Positions 12,956-45,057 of a stretch of DNA of 64,000 nucleotides are shown here, in pieces. A program made the translations under genes and the position numbers. Under the pieces are notes generated by a model that worked only from the letters and a program-made list of their open reading frames with translations, was not told where the DNA came from and did not search any database. The stretch comes from a virus. The stretch lies in IMG/VR virus record IMGVR_UViG_3300014039_000006; one strand, given 5' to 3'. Every line of letters begins with the position of its first letter. Positions within the stretch are counted from its first letter, which is position 1.

Positions 12956-13250
12956 AGAAAAAGAGGAACTATTTCAAAAAATGAACAGTGCAAATGTAGA
13001 TACGGTTTACGAGATCATCAAGAAAGATCAGCTTATCTTGATGATGCACGAATTAAAGGTGAAACAAGGTGCCGATCAAAAATTAACAACAACAGCGCTT
13101 CAAGCATTTTGCATATTGTTAGGAACTCTTGAAGGAGAAACAGGCTGCATAATTAAGAAAGTTGCATATGATCTTCTGTTTTCAATAATTGATATGAGAT
13201 TGCGCATGGAATATGAAGCAGAGAAAGGAGAAAAGGAAGATGAAAATTAA
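12939..13250 (+). CDS. Hypothetical protein
   Basis: ORF with an internal ATG and an SD-like GGGAGAAAAA. Confidence 0.45.
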   Translation: MDLNSKEKEELFQKMNSANVDTVYEIIKKDQLILMMHELKVKQGADQKLTTTALQAFCILLGTLEGETGCIIKKVAYDLLFSIIDMRLRMEYEAEKGEKEDEN

Positions 13251-15195
13251 ACACGTATTTGCACAGAATTTCTGCAAGTTTACAGGAACAAAAACGATTG
13301 ATTTTGATTTTTCAGACAAGACGATCGTTTCCGGAGCAAATGAAGCCGGAAAGTCTACAATTAAGACACTGATTTATTGGATCCTGAATTGCCGTGATGA
13401 AAACGGTAAGGAGATTACAGGAATCAGACCGCATGATAAGGACGGCGTGTACATGGACAACGTAGAAACGGTTGGAGCGGTTACATTTGACATTGACGGC
13501 GAAGAAAAGACCATGAAGAAGGTATTCCGGCAGAATATTAATAAGAAAGGCGAGTTTACCGGAAACGTCACGGATTATTATGTCAATGATATTCCGAAGA
13601 AAGCCACGGATTATGCGGATTTTATTGGCGAACGGATTGTTTCTGACGGTAAATTACCGTACTGCATTAATACCATGACTTTACTGCTTAAAAACTCCAC
13701 AGAACAGCGTGCGTTGTTACATGATACGTTCGGTCAACATACCGATGCGGATATCTGCGATATGTTTCCGGAGTTTGAGCCGTTGAAATCTATTCTTTCA
13801 GACGGAACAATCGAGGAACTGAAAAAGCGATGTAACACACAGTTGAACGGCACAAGAGGTAAGAACGGTAGCAAAGGATTGAATGACTTGCTTGACGAAA
13901 TCCCTAGCCGTATTGATGAGGTCAGCAGACAGAAAGTTGACCTTGACTTTGCGGAACTTGAACTGCAAAAGAACGGGATCCTTGAAAGAATTGCACAAAT
14001 TGACAAGTCATTATCAGACAATGAAGAACTTCTTGAAGAGGAAAAGAAGAAATCGGACGGCATTCTGGAATTGAAATTCAAGATTTCAGAATTGCAGAAC
14101 GAAGCCAACAGGAAAAACGACAAGAAGCGTGCTGATATCCGGTCACAGATTAGCCGTTTGGAGAACAACAGAGTGCAGTTGGATTCCGAAATTAAGGATC
14201 TTACCTTCAAGGACAAGTATCTTTCCAATTCGATCCTTACAAAAACAGAAGAACGAAAGAAACTCGCGGAGAAGTGGAAGGTAGAACATGACCGTGTATT
14301 TGACGATTCTACACTGGTTTGTCCTTATTGCGGTCAAGAATACCCAGAAGAGAAAAAAGGCCAGTTAAAGGCTGAATTTCAACAACACAAGGCCGATGAA
14401 CTGAAACACATCGAAGAAGAGGGAATGAATCTGAAATCTTACATTGACGATGGCAATGCAGAGATTTCAAAGATGCATGAATCTATTGAAGAAAAGAACA
14501 CAGAATTGCAGAAGATTATTGATGAAATTGCAAATTTGAATGCAGAATACAATGCAATTTCGGCTGTTGTGGATATTTCCGATACGGAAGAGGTAAAGGA
14601 AATTCAGAAACAGATTTCAGAAATGGAATCTGCAATGAAGAAAGAAAATTACATTGATGATATCAGGGTGAAACACAAAGCGGAAAGAGACCTTGCGAAT
14701 GCAGAATTAGCAGAGGTTCAGGCTAAAATTGCAAAGTCAGCATTCAATGCACAATTAGATGACAGAATCGCAGAACTGGAAGAGGAAAATAGAAATATCG
14801 CACAGAAAATTACGGACGTTCAAGCACAACTTGACCTGTTAAAACGGTTTAGTCGGAAGAAAAATGAACTTCTGGAAGCAGATGTGAACAGTTACTTGAA
14901 TTTCTGCAAGGTGAAAATGTTCCGTCCTCTTATTAACGGTGACACAGAAGAATGCTGCGAGTTTATTTACAACGGAGAGCCATACGGACAAAGATTAAAC
15001 CATGGAGCAAGGATTCTTGTAGAAATTGACATTTGCCGGGCATTTCAGAAGAAATATGGAGCAGAGATCCCAATTATCGTTGATGATACAGAGTCCGTTG
15101 ATGATTGGCGTATTCCGGAGATTGAAAGTCAGCTTATTTTATTGAAAAGAACGGATGAAAAGGAATTGTTCGTGAAAGGAGTCACGAATGGGTAA
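13240..15195 (+). CDS. AAA/SMC-like ATPase (SbcC/Rad50-like recombination protein)
   Basis: Walker A GANEAGKST, a long central coiled coil containing CPYCGQ, and a C-terminal IIVDDTES (Walker B-like). Confidence 0.7.
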   Translation: MKIKHVFAQNFCKFTGTKTIDFDFSDKTIVSGANEAGKSTIKTLIYWILNCRDENGKEITGIRPHDKDGVYMDNVETVGAVTFDIDGEEKTMKKVFRQNINKKGEFTGNVTDYYVNDIPKKATDYADFIGERIVSDGKLPYCINTMTLLLKNSTEQRALLHDTFGQHTDADICDMFPEFEPLKSILSDGTIEELKKRCNTQLNGTRGKNGSKGLNDLLDEIPSRIDEVSRQKVDLDFAELELQKNGILERIAQIDKSLSDNEELLEEEKKKSDGILELKFKISELQNEANRKNDKKRADIRSQISRLENNRVQLDSEIKDLTFKDKYLSNSILTKTEERKKLAEKWKVEHDRVFDDSTLVCPYCGQEYPEEKKGQLKAEFQQHKADELKHIEEEGMNLKSYIDDGNAEISKMHESIEEKNTELQKIIDEIANLNAEYNAISAVVDISDTEEVKEIQKQISEMESAMKKENYIDDIRVKHKAERDLANAELAEVQAKIAKSAFNAQLDDRIAELEEENRNIAQKITDVQAQLDLLKRFSRKKNELLEADVNSYLNFCKVKMFRPLINGDTEECCEFIYNGEPYGQRLNHGARILVEIDICRAFQKKYGAEIPIIVDDTESVDDWRIPEIESQLILLKRTDEKELFVKGVTNG

Positions 15196-16965: not shown

Positions 16966-17002
16966 GGCATGATGAAACAGGGTGATGCGAGGAAGGAGTT
17001 TT

Positions 17003-17428
17003 ATGCAAGCAGAATGGAAGATTAAAGGTATTTACAAGGCAGACGCTCAAAAGATTGCGGATGAAATAGGGGACAATAAGATTTCTCCGCAAGAATTACT
17101 AGAAAAGGCAAGGAATGAAGATTCTGAACTTCATAAGTGTTTTGAGTGGGACGATTCCGTAGCTGCCGAAAAGTACAGATTGATACAGGCGAGACAGATA
17201 ATTGTGAACCTTGTGTATAAAAAGGCCACAAAAGAGGAACAGCCTGTAAGATGCTTTCAGATTAGTTCCGAAAGAACCGTCTATCAGCCAACGACACAAT
17301 TTCTTGTGCAAGAGGACGAATATCAGGCATTGCTTAAACGGGCGAAATCGGAACTTGAAAGTTTCAAAAGGAGATATTCTACACTTACTGAATTGGAGTC
17401 GGTATTTGAAGCAATAGAAGCATTATAA
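17003..17428 (+). CDS. Hypothetical phage protein
   Basis: GGAAGGAG SD. Contains the conserved-looking SELHKCFEWDDSVAAEKYRLIQARQII. Confidence 0.5.
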   Translation: MQAEWKIKGIYKADAQKIADEIGDNKISPQELLEKARNEDSELHKCFEWDDSVAAEKYRLIQARQIIVNLVYKKATKEEQPVRCFQISSERTVYQPTTQFLVQEDEYQALLKRAKSELESFKRRYSTLTELESVFEAIEAL

Positions 17429-17449
17429 AGGAACAAAAATATATTTAGT

Positions 17450-17730
17450 GTACTGGTAGGTGTTATGTTGGCATTAAAGTCAATAATTCAGAAAAGGAAA
17501 CTACAGATAAGAGAAGCAAAATACAAAACATAGGAAATAACTAAAAATTGATTTTAAAGCTGACACAATGCCTATCAGTACAAAAGGCATTTTCAAGTGT
17601 CTAGTAGGTAAGTTGATTTCTTACCAAAACACTACAGAACAGCAAACTACAGAGCAGAAAACTATAATGCAGAACAGCGTAGCAAAAAAATAGATAAACC
17701 ACATAGATTTTGACTTACCTGTTAGGCACT
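17450..17730 (+). ncRNA. Candidate structured RNA: two tandem stem-closed domains (17450-17581 and 17596-17730)
   Basis: A 15-bp stem (17450-17464 / 17567-17581) and an 18-bp stem (17596-17613 / 17713-17730). All 6 non-Watson-Crick positions are G.T in the + sense. The ~100-nt loops are A-rich and homologous. The 327-nt gap has no ORF. Confidence 0.5.
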
Positions 17731-17755
17731 TGATGATGCAAAAGAAAGGAGAAAA

Positions 17756-18433
17756 ATGGCAAAAGCAAAGAAAATCACAATCGAACCGCTGAAAGAAACT
17801 ACAATGCTTATTTCTCTTGTTGGAGATACTGATTTGATTTTATCTTCTAGAAACAGGCTGTATGTTCAATCGGAAGTTTGGAGACAATCACACGATAAAG
17901 GAAGTGATCTACCGGATATATTTAAACAATCAAAGAACATCTGGGAGAACAGAATTACTTCTATTCACTGGAAGAATCCTATTGAATATCACGATGAAGA
18001 TATTTCTCTTTACACGGAAGATGAATGGAAGAAGTACATGAAAGAAAATCAGCCTTGCTTGCTCGGAATTGGCTTTAGAAAAAGTTTTAAAGAAGCGTTT
18101 GTTACTTTTTACAAGGACAGTACAGGTAAAAACGGAACTGATTTTACAAGAGCATTGTGTATGGGAGACACCATTTTTCCTATTACGTTTTCTTCTGTAA
18201 GAATTGAAGATACTCTTGTCCCGACTAATGAAATGTGCACAACCTCTGTTATACAGACACAGAATGTTTTTAGCGGTTGGAAATGCGATATTTTGATTAG
18301 TTGCGTTGACATTGTTTTTCCGCCGGAAACAATCTTATCTGTTATTAATACAACAGGAAAATATATCGGCATTGGATCGCAACGCAAGAACGGAATGGGA
18401 AGATACCACATTGAAAATGTAAAAATGGTTTAG
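17756..18433 (+). CDS. Hypothetical protein with RAMP/Cas6-like C-terminal glycine loop
   Basis: 225 aa, AAAGGAG SD. GIGSQRKNGMG lies 10 aa from the C-terminus and fits GhGxxxxxGhG. No other motif recognised. Confidence 0.6.
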   Translation: MAKAKKITIEPLKETTMLISLVGDTDLILSSRNRLYVQSEVWRQSHDKGSDLPDIFKQSKNIWENRITSIHWKNPIEYHDEDISLYTEDEWKKYMKENQPCLLGIGFRKSFKEAFVTFYKDSTGKNGTDFTRALCMGDTIFPITFSSVRIEDTLVPTNEMCTTSVIQTQNVFSGWKCDILISCVDIVFPPETILSVINTTGKYIGIGSQRKNGMGRYHIENVKMV

Positions 18434-18677: not shown

Positions 18678-19034
18678 ATGAAGATTATTGAGGGAAAAGA
18701 AAAAGAATACAAGGAATGGTACGACAAAAATAGCGATGCTTATAGCAGAGCATGTTTTACATTCGCAGAAAGATGGGCGGAACTTTTGGAAGAAAAAATA
18801 GACAACTCTTCCGATTGCCCGATGAAGGTAATTGTCGATAACGCAGAACAATTAAGTGACGAAGCAGACACAGAAGGAATCACGGGATTTATGTATGGTT
18901 GCGCTGTTAATATTCTCTCGAGAGAATGGGAATACGGCGATGAATTGAGAAGATGGCATAACGGAAAATACGATTATCAGGGCGAAGGAACTGTAAATCC
19001 GGCTATTCTTACGGTTGGTGGCAAAGATGATTAA
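18678..19034 (+). CDS. Hypothetical protein
   Basis: 118-aa ORF in the array. Confidence 0.5.
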   Translation: MKIIEGKEKEYKEWYDKNSDAYSRACFTFAERWAELLEEKIDNSSDCPMKVIVDNAEQLSDEADTEGITGFMYGCAVNILSREWEYGDELRRWHNGKYDYQGEGTVNPAILTVGGKDD

Positions 19035-40112: not shown

Positions 40113-40124
40113 TCCTTTCCCCTT

Positions 40125-40192
40125 CTAGCCTGTCATCATCGGAGCCGGGCGGCTGTCCCACGGCTGACGCTCCGGAGAGCGTTTCGACTATT
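40125..40192 (-). ncRNA. Hammerhead type II-like element 1
   Basis: Minus strand: ATAGTC-GAAA-CGCTC-TCCG-GAGCG-TC|AGCCG/CGGCT-CCGATGA-T-GAC. Confidence 0.55.
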
Positions 40193-40845: not shown

Positions 40846-40889
40846 TATGGGATCCCCGGATATGGAATAGTTATATAACATGATATATA

Positions 40890-40990
40890 ATAATTTCTAT
40901 ATGGTAATTATTATATAGTGATTCTGTATGATATTTACTATATAATAATTCTGTGTTAAAATTACTATATAGTAATTCGTATATAATAAT
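40890..40990 (+). repeat. Array of about four direct repeats (consensus ACTATATAGTAATTCTGT)
   Basis: Copies near 40894, 40909, 40937 and 40963, just upstream of ORF 41010. Confidence 0.6.
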
Positions 40991-41853: not shown

Positions 41854-41878
41854 AACACTACTGATATACCTAAACAAT

Positions 41879-41996
41879 CTCAACGTAAATAAAGCCAATA
41901 AACTATCGTTTAGTCAATACATTGTTTTTATAACACTCTCAACGTAGATACTACCAATAACTTACCGTGTAGCCAATAACTTATATTTATAACACT
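41879..41996 (+). repeat. Two adjacent 59-bp direct repeats
   Basis: 41879-41937 and 41938-41996 match at 46 of 59 positions. Both start CTCAACGTA and end TTTATAACACT. Confidence 0.8.
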
Positions 41997-44421: not shown

Positions 44422-44494
44422 AGGGATATCGCCAAGCGGTAACGGCACAGGATTTTGATTCCTGTATTCGTGGGTTCGAATCCCACTATCCCCG
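44422..44494 (+). tRNA. tRNA-Gln (anticodon UUG)
   Basis: Cloverleaf: acceptor AGGGATA/TATCCCC (A1.C72 mismatch), D arm GCC..GGC, anticodon arm CAGGA-TTTTGAT-TCCTG, T arm GTGGG-TTCGAAT-CCCAC. No encoded CCA. Confidence 0.8.
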
Positions 44495-44941: not shown

Positions 44942-45057
44942 CGGATAGTAGCTCAATAGGAAGAGCAGTATTTGAAAAATGTGTTAACAAAACACTAACA
45001 GCAATTACTTTTTTCAGGGGCGCATACGTGTTGGCGGTTCGAGTCCGTCCTATCCGA
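44942..45057 (+). ncRNA. tRNA-shaped RNA 2 with an expanded, branched anticodon domain
   Basis: Acceptor CGGATAG/CTATCCG, U8, D arm GCTC-AATAGGAA-GAGC, T arm GGCGG-TTCGAGT-CCGTC. A 65-nt insert (TGAAAAA...TTTTTCA stem, GTGTT/AACAC hairpin) replaces the 17-nt anticodon arm. Confidence 0.6.

Follow-up and report, generated by a model that had tools for sequence, protein, structure and literature searches.

A candidate VIPR locus with two stem-closed, A-rich guide RNA genes and a Cas7-like RAMP gene in the viral contig IMGVR_UViG_3300014039_000006

The stretch analyzed here is a 64-kb window of viral DNA (IMG/VR record IMGVR_UViG_3300014039_000006), and the locus in question is the 327-nt gap at 17429-17755 between the open reading frames (ORFs) 16982-17428 and 17756-18433. 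The gap contains two A-rich, stem-closed units on the + strand (17449-17582 and 17587-17739) and is followed by the gene for a 225-amino-acid (aa) RAMP protein. Together with the gene upstream, these elements resemble a locus of VIPR (Viral Interference Programmable Repeat), a system first described in 2026 (bioRxiv 10.64898/2026.04.26.720920; 10.64898/2026.04.26.720927). The features of the locus are as follows.

17003..17428, + strand: candidate Vipr-accessory gene, 141 aa, mostly helical, no known domain
17449..17582, + strand: vrRNA-like unit 1, 134 nt, delimited by fold, inverted repeat I1 and pentamer parse
17449-17484 (5') and 17547-17582 (3'), + strand: arms of unit 1, 36 nt, inverted repeat I1
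~17488-17542, + strand: tract of unit 1, 11 pentamers, TCAGA AAAGG AAACT ACAGA TAAGA GAAGC AAAAT ACAAA ACATA GGAAA TAACT
17587..17739, + strand: vrRNA-like unit 2, 153 nt, delimited by fold, inverted repeat I2 and pentamer parse
17587-17613 (5') and 17713-17739 (3'), + strand: arms of unit 2, 27 nt, inverted repeat I2
17606-17625, + strand: alternative local hairpin of unit 2, GGTAAG/CTTACC pairing
17624-17703, + strand: tract of unit 2, 16 pentamers, CCAAA ACACT ACAGA ACAGC AAACT ACAGA GCAGA AAACT ATAAT GCAGA ACAGC GTAGC AAAAA AATAG ATAAA CCACA
17756..18433, + strand: vipr-like gene, 225 aa, Cas7/Csm3-like RAMP with the C-terminal G-loop GIGSQRKNGMGRY

Two stems had been noticed in an initial annotation of the region, and both are present: GTACTGGTAGGTGTT (17450-17464) pairs with AATGCCTATCAGTAC (17568-17582) in unit 1, and AGTGTCTAGTAGGTAAGT (17597-17614) pairs with ACTTACCTGTTAGGCACT (17714-17731) in unit 2. 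Each contains three G.T pairs and zero A.C pairs, in agreement with the strand asymmetry that had been claimed. The positions of these stems hold, but their lengths do not, as each is only the outer part of a longer, imperfect helix; likewise, the units were described as two of about 133 nt and measure 134 and 153 nt. On the + strand the region folds at -83.8 kcal/mol (z = -7.9, with 0 of 100 shuffles as good), compared with -75.4 kcal/mol (z = -5.3) on the - strand, and no Rfam family was matched in the unit region. The loops of units 1 and 2 are related to each other (73% identity across 49 nt), and the loop repeats ACTACAGA and GCAGAACAGC mentioned previously were found. GGTAAG (17606-17611) pairs with CTTACC at either 17620-17625 or 17714-17719; this switch-like alternative had also been proposed, and the same competition is kept across related units.

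For comparison, we took 79 loci encoding relatives of the 225-aa protein at 45-100% identity. Arrays of stem-closed A-rich units lie upstream of the vipr-like gene in nearly all of them, with 2-11 units per locus and 367 unique units in total (median 125 nt, ~28 stem pairs, loop ~64 nt). Units of different phages have nearly identical arms and loops unrelated in sequence and length, and the loops differ even where Vipr is 99-100% identical to that of the window. Locus L005 (3612-3725), with a 100% identical Vipr and the same stems, has a unit-1 loop that is 20 nt (four pentamers) shorter than, and partly different from, that of the window at 17449-17582, indicating rapid turnover of the guide tract.

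Covariation in relatives, one of the checks proposed for the structure, was evaluated with 47 distinct arm pairs of one stem superfamily. Standard pairs occupied 98.3% of the cells, compared with 88.7% in shuffled arms and 31-55% when the partners were slid; compensatory, both-sided changes were seen in 9 of 18 stem pairs, and the covariation score was reached by 0 of 500 shuffles. The related stems contain 1431 G.U pairs against 222 A/C mismatches, and among 284 related units (loci L004-L081) the + strand was the more stable one in 230 (p = 9e-31). The G.U excess and the greater stability of the + strand therefore indicate that RNA would be made in the sense of the genes. The competition seen in unit 2 is a family trait: across the 284 units, the inner 5' arm has a three-way complementarity, being able to pair with the adjoining downstream segment or with the 3' arm. 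When the 5' halves were folded alone, a local hairpin formed far beyond the level of shuffles (p = 2.5e-42; 95% of units at or below -5 kcal/mol), and the 3' halves alone were no better than shuffles (p = 0.46). The competing 5' hairpin could act in maturation, loading or capping.

The 225-aa ORF had no match in Pfam, NCBIfam or PADLOC, its PHROG is of unknown function, and neither blastn nor tblastn found a match in 50,697 GenBank phage records. The homolog search returned 187 proteins at E <= 0.001; no Pfam domain or functional name occurred among the 120 listed, and the few named homologs are hypothetical proteins, some from uncultured Caudoviricetes. The ORF terminates in GIGSQRKNGMGRYHIENVKMV, the GhGxxxxxGhG-type loop pointed out earlier. 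Much of it is invariant among 30 homologs (G205, G207, R210, N212, G213, G215, Y217 and H218, with G201 and Y203 upstream), and the loop pattern G-K-Y-I-G-I-G-x-Q-R-x-N-G-x-G-R-Y-H is largely invariant.

Structure prediction and remote-homology searches, which had likewise been suggested for this ORF, gave a Cas7/Csm3-like fold and a profile match to SUSP1 Vipr. The AlphaFold model, based on 30 homologs, had a predicted local distance difference test score (pLDDT) of 85.5. Foldseek against the PDB gave Csm3/Cas7 backbone subunits of type III-A and type VII systems as the best matches (E 8e-7 to 1e-4, probability 1.0, template modeling (TM) score ~0.5), and BFVD, the viral structure library, gave a family member (TM 0.8) and a 'Cas system-associated RAMP superfamily protein' (E 2.6e-6). 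In the PDB, the family profile matched one solved structure, 36pp_D, 'SUSP1 Vipr protein' (E 6e-4, residues 123-220), and the sole Cas6 signal was a weak match of the profile to the G-loop of MMB-1 Cas6 (E 0.57). BLASTP aligned the protein with the SUSP2 homolog at 22% identity over 105 aa. The protein is therefore a minimal RAMP (RRM core, G-loop and thumb) outside a CRISPR locus. The Cas6/RAMP reading of the initial annotation holds as to RAMP, with the correction that the protein resembles the filament-forming guide holder Cas7/Csm3 more than an endonuclease of the Cas6 kind.

In the described systems, Vipr is a small phage-encoded RAMP that sits with one protomer per repeat on vrRNAs of 9-16 YNNGG pentamers, burying the conserved GGY and presenting the variable NN, and the NN series pairs with DNA while skipping every third base (10.64898/2026.04.26.720920; 10.64898/2026.04.26.720927). 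Most targets are genes of satellites or competing phages in which the skipped base is the wobble position of a codon, and a small accessory gene (vap; vap1-6) adjoins vipr (10.64898/2026.04.26.720920; 10.64898/2026.04.26.720927). Seven VIPR types are reported, with NNNGG, YNNNG and NNNNG as the alternative repeats that the text names (10.64898/2026.04.26.720920; 10.64898/2026.04.26.720927). In the G-loop of the SUSP1 protein, D177 and W178 are reported to read G1 and G2 (10.64898/2026.04.26.720920; 10.64898/2026.04.26.720927). In our HMMER alignment these two residues stand opposite S/T and Q, and R179 is retained; the altered residues would fit a changed trinucleotide specificity.

The loops of the window show a 5-nt periodicity, and their repeat code is a conserved A-[C/U/A]-A alternating with a variable NN, with no conserved G. 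To describe it, we fitted a profile by expectation maximization (EM) from random starts to 301 unique loops from the related loci. Every start reached one profile, consisting of N, A (75%), C/T/A (42, 28 and 24%), A (84%) and N, with a log-likelihood of -21449 compared with -24356 for shuffled loops. The commonest trinucleotides in the related loops are ACA (39%), ATA (25%) and AAA (13%), together 78%, all 16 dinucleotides are used at the NN positions, and tracts have a median of 11 pentamers. When the window was scored with the learned profile on both strands, with local composition as the null, the highest peaks were at 17606-17700 in unit 2 (15.2) and 17481-17530 in unit 1 (7.7), and the next best score in the window was 3.9. 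A plain Fourier scan for period 5 did not single out the region, in contrast to motif-phased counts and the learned profile, which did. Differences in loop length were not significantly enriched for multiples of 5 (p = 0.11), the loop boundaries given by RNAfold being imprecise. In near-identical loops, clear protection is limited to the third A (2% variable, compared with 7-11% at the other four positions).

This code is distinct from the repeats named in the text of the preprint. The units of the window match neither the consensus GGY/NN (YNNGG) nor the alternatives NNNGG, YNNNG and NNNNG, and no GGYNN array was found on either strand of the window, the best candidate having 4 of 10 pentamers and lying within coding sequence. 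Canonical YNNGG arrays are present on both flanks of a remote relative retrieved with the same profile (P0209, 195 aa), and published-type G/U-rich arrays are present at the SUSP2 locus. A third arrangement was found in locus L326, where three stem-closed units at 1630-2090 are built of NN-AAA pentamers, e.g. GTAAA GCAAA CAAAC GTAAA. The protein of that locus, P0133, is a more distant relative of the 225-aa protein (E 3e-32) yet closer than P0209, and its units read NN-AAA; the G-free scaffold therefore reaches beyond the clade of the window. Compared across these loci, the conserved trinucleotide appears to drift within the A-rich lineage. Among 3225 pentamers from loci L004-L081, the commonest NNs are GA, AA, GC, TT, AT, GT and GG, the dinucleotides with which codons of abundant amino acids begin (D/E, K/N, A, F/L, I/M, V and G). 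Such a composition fits guides that mostly read coding strands.

Targets were sought by applying the published rule of a one-nucleotide skip, in which the NN series is read as NNx. The pattern derived from unit 2, GANGCNCTNGANGANCTNATNGANGCNGC, specifies 20 bases and has at least 120 exact matches in IMG/VR viral contigs, compared with 1 match when the NN order was reversed as a control. The matches inspected all fall in frame on the codons for KL(D/E)ALEDLIEAANGKP, a motif of an SNF2-family helicase, a protein of 455-470 aa with an SNF2-related domain (Pfam E 1e-17), and the third codon positions of the targets vary freely. The match reaches 14 of 16 NNs in 67 of the 120 contigs listed, and 30 of 32 bases in 65. 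A 12-NN pattern of unit 2 also has at least 120 matches in bacterial genomes, which among those listed belong mostly to Oscillospiraceae, Lachnospiraceae, Faecalibacterium, Ruminococcus and other Clostridia of the gut, with some Actinomycetaceae. These matches suggest that prophages are targeted as well.

A cross-test was performed with 205 guides from relatives, excluding the clade of the window, which were searched in the 120 target contigs that had been retrieved with the guide of the window alone. At skip 1, 23 of the 205 guides matched at least 90% of their NNs. In the same contigs, skips of 0, 2 and 3 gave no such guide, and neither did reversal of the guides or 615 order-shuffled versions. 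The matches fall in a 650-aa family A DNA polymerase encoded by these target phages, at the motifs ADFSAIEARVIA, GPKFVENIVQAT, ANRTGRWAGRIIQ and EKQKLTEGKELIKYFSVP, all in coding sense with NN on codon positions 1-2. The guides of relatives would accordingly be directed, as far as matching can tell, at DNA-polymerase and helicase motifs of the same target phages. At the level of sequence matching, the guides thus agree with recognition by NN with one skipped target base per repeat. The guides of the window have no self-target in the window above shuffled controls, and no homolog of the target helicase or polymerase is present there. A first target search, in the window and the related loci, had returned only artefacts and was discarded: at skip 3 the matches were to homologous arrays that had not been masked, and at skip 1 they were between coding 'units' and their own homologs.

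The locus shares several features with type II VIPR (Escherichia phages SUSP1 and SUSP2, and a P. fulva prophage). These are a phage-encoded, stand-alone small RAMP with a G-loop; an adjoining small gene, here a candidate accessory gene, and long non-coding flanks with several guide-RNA genes; guides of ~9-16 pentamers in which a conserved trinucleotide alternates with NN; and NNx target matches with the skip at wobble positions, in other phages or prophages and without self-targets. It differs in that the trinucleotide is A-[C/U/A]-A instead of GGY and the tract A-rich instead of G/U-rich (compare locus L325), in having S/T and Q in the G-loop where SUSP1 has D177 and W178, and in a protein of 225 aa instead of ~200, with the alignment limited to the C-terminal half. 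The targets seen here are replication-gene motifs, unlike those of type II. The RNA ends also differ: SUSP1 has a 3' tail with a pseudoknot, whereas here the tract is enclosed by a ~28-bp stem of its own flanks with a competing 5' hairpin, a pseudoknot not having been searched for. As the architecture and the target code agree with VIPR and the repeat consensus and 3' tail do not, the locus is therefore best regarded as a variant of VIPR.

The resemblance extends to the backbone subunits of class 1 CRISPR systems (Csm3, Cmr4 and type VII Cas7), which have the same RRM/RAMP fold, G-loop and thumb. In Cas7, one protomer covers a fixed RNA increment and guide-target pairing is periodically interrupted. 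Unlike in Cas7, where the increment is 6 nt with 5 read, the increment here is 5 nt with 2 read, and the guide is hard-wired in the repeat scaffold instead of being a spacer. In contrast to class 1 CRISPR, no array was found, nor Cas10, Cas8, Cas5 or Cas6 partners or acquisition genes, the screen for cas genes having covered the six neighboring ORFs and not the whole window. The earlier claim that no CRISPR array is present was borne out by a tandem-repeat scan of the window, and the claim that no other cas gene is present holds for those six ORFs, in which PADLOC gave only two sub-threshold Cas10 matches. Both fall in ORF 16982-17428 and concern the N-terminal regions of Cas10/Csm1 (E 8e-4 and 2e-3); they are probably noise and were treated as such. 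Fold, strand bias and homology together support the view of a + strand structured RNA with a stand-alone RAMP protein outside a CRISPR context.

From these data, we conclude that the region is a VIPR locus, consisting of a candidate accessory gene, two guide-RNA genes and a vipr gene for a Cas7-like RAMP, and we assign this reading a probability of roughly 0.88. What had been overlooked before is that the A-rich loops appear to be pentanucleotide-repeat guide tracts with identifiable DNA targets, and it is because of this that the locus can be explained. In the proposed mechanism, each RNA would be transcribed from the + strand as a long imperfect hairpin, presumably processed at its long stem, whose loop is the tract of 11-16 pentamers. 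If the solved SUSP1 system is taken as a model, each pentamer would be bound by one Vipr protomer, with the trinucleotide buried and NN presented, and the NN series would pair with double-stranded DNA while every third target base is skipped. Unit 2 would be aimed at the KL(D/E)ALEDLIEAANGKP codons of the SNF2-family helicase in phages and prophages that also encode the family A DNA polymerase. Because the bases skipped are wobble bases, the target would not escape by synonymous changes. The likely outcome is repression of replication genes in competing phages or resident prophages, and the most likely function would be RNA-guided silencing of competing phages or prophages, rather than cleavage of their DNA.

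Several observations weigh against this interpretation. Sequence similarity to SUSP1 Vipr is weak (22% identity, in the C-terminal half only). The trinucleotide is neither GGY nor a published alternative, and we therefore only infer that the SUSP1 mechanism can be transferred to this locus. Substitutions in near-identical loops reach beyond the NN positions, and no convincing promoter or terminator was found near the units. The G+C content of the target contigs averages 52%, compared with 39% for the VIPR phages; a host shared by VIPR phages and targets is plausible. Finally, no consistent target of unit 1 was found in IMG/VR, the metagenome collection or the target loci. Two 18-base patterns of unit 1 had 1 IMG/VR match each, one of them in a thiamine pyrophosphate (TPP)-dependent enzyme, a metagenome scan gave 54 unrelated matches, and the best local match (20 of 26 bases) was at the level of shuffled controls. 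Unit 1 is related to unit 2 but has diverged, and its repeat score is lower; it may be degenerating, or its target may lie in an element that has not been sampled.

Alternative explanations were considered on the same evidence. If the system were Cas6-like, the 225-aa RAMP would be an endoribonuclease cutting the stem-closed RNAs, which would serve, e.g., as decoys or regulators. The C-terminal GhGxxxxxGhG glycine-rich loop and an RNA hairpin partner are indeed shared with Cas6, the G-loop match to MMB-1 Cas6 points the same way, and the long stems resemble processing substrates. However, the best 50 structural matches listed are backbone subunits of CRISPR effector complexes (Csm3/Cas7 and type VII Cas7) with no Cas6 among them, the sequence match goes to Vipr, no catalytic motif was identified in the protein, and the RNA is not a CRISPR repeat. 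Pure processing also does not predict a 5-nt code that matches foreign genes at skip 1 only, and we consider this explanation very unlikely. Another possibility is that the units regulate the downstream gene in cis as its 5' leader, or serve as an RNA decoy of the anti-defense genes nearby, the codon-like matches being coincidental. The units do lie directly upstream of the ORF with competing local and distal pairing, and a homolog of Tad4 is encoded 245 nt downstream of it. Tad4, however, occurs in just 2 of the 79 related loci, leaders are not found as arrays of up to 11 units with swapped loops, and the target matches are far above chance and tied to a single register, order and skip length, which makes a leader or decoy highly improbable.

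The remaining explanation concerns DNA rather than RNA: the repeats would be iterons of a replication origin or another protein-binding site, the inverted repeats cruciform or unwinding elements, and the RAMP-like gene unrelated. An A-rich, repetitive and palindromic region in a recombination/replication block (RecT, SbcC/Rad50-like ATPase) is compatible with such an origin. Yet a strand-asymmetric G.U excess is meaningless for duplex DNA, and the loops are hypervariable among near-identical phages while the stems covary, which is the opposite of what iterons do. Close linkage of array and RAMP gene is seen in 79 loci, no origin model accounts for NNx matches to foreign genes, and iteron-like tandem repeats lie elsewhere in the window (40884-40990 and 41873-41996). 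An origin at this position is thus extremely improbable.

Given a VIPR locus, its place among the known types was also considered. It might correspond to one of the seven published types, the comparison having been made with the repeats named in the text of the preprint; that text names no G-free repeat. With somewhat better than even odds, we favor a VIPR lineage that lies outside the seven types and has not been described. It would be defined by a G-free scaffold (A-[C/U/A]-A/NN, and AAA/NN in L326), a matching change of the G-loop pocket and stem-closed precursors with a switchable 5' hairpin, and it would be specialized in targeting invariant motifs in the replication proteins of its competitors, both phages and prophages of gut Clostridia.

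The first reports of VIPR date from 2026, and its characterization has so far been on GGY/NN guides. A second, G-free scaffold would show that the buried trinucleotide is an evolvable protein-RNA handshake and not a fixed feature, and it would allow two pocket solutions to be compared, D-W-R in SUSP1 and S/T-Q-R here. It would also provide Vipr-guide pairs expected to work without cross-talk, an advantage where programmable DNA binding is to be multiplexed. The stem-closed precursor and the competing 5' hairpin point to an undescribed maturation or loading step. The family is abundant in gut viromes, and its guides would aim at the most invariant helicase and DNA-polymerase motifs of rivals with the wobble base ignored; this would be a clear natural example of inter-phage targeting that resists escape, and many guide-target pairs are predicted for it.

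The accessory gene begins in the ORF list with a GTG at 16982 (148-aa translation); the true start is probably 17003, giving 141 aa. A homolog lies directly before the array in 77 of the 79 related loci, and the gene moves with the array and vipr when the genes for the SbcC/Rad50-like ATPase and RecT shift position. It has 753 homologs, mostly of 141-143 aa, and belongs to PHROG 15946, of unknown function; no match was found in Pfam, NCBIfam or the PDB, and its AlphaFold model is poor (pLDDT 54). On the basis of its position, we regard it as a candidate vap, whose role would be that of a Vipr accessory protein. Three further genes of the neighborhood are listed below.

13213-15195: SbcC/Rad50/SMC-like ATPase, 660 aa
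16210-16965: RecT-like annealing protein
18678-19034, + strand: homolog of Tad4, a Thoeris inhibitor (Pfam PF25186, E 7e-34), 245 nt downstream of the vipr-like gene

The ATPase gene is found in 71 of the 79 loci, just upstream of the accessory gene in most relatives and downstream of vipr in L071, and it is probably part of a recombination module and not of VIPR. Being present in just 2 of the 79 loci, the Tad4 homolog is considered a separate anti-defense cargo gene. A downstream 75-aa ORF occurs in 15 related loci and is no conserved partner.

Some minor features were observed elsewhere in the window. A type II hammerhead ribozyme was detected at 40124-40189 on the - strand (Rfam RF02276; 43.1 bits, gathering score 37). 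Arrays of vrRNA interspersed with hammerheads are mentioned in the VIPR preprint; here, a scan with the learned profile found no pentamer tract adjoining the ribozyme. The tandem repeats at 40884-40990 (27 nt x 3.9) and 41873-41996 (59 nt x 2.1) lie in an AT-rich stretch, and being iteron-like, they could mark an origin or a regulatory region. Two tRNA matches were found on the + strand, at 44422-44494 and 44942-45057, and the second, which is 116 nt long where the model has 71 positions, may contain an insertion or intron.

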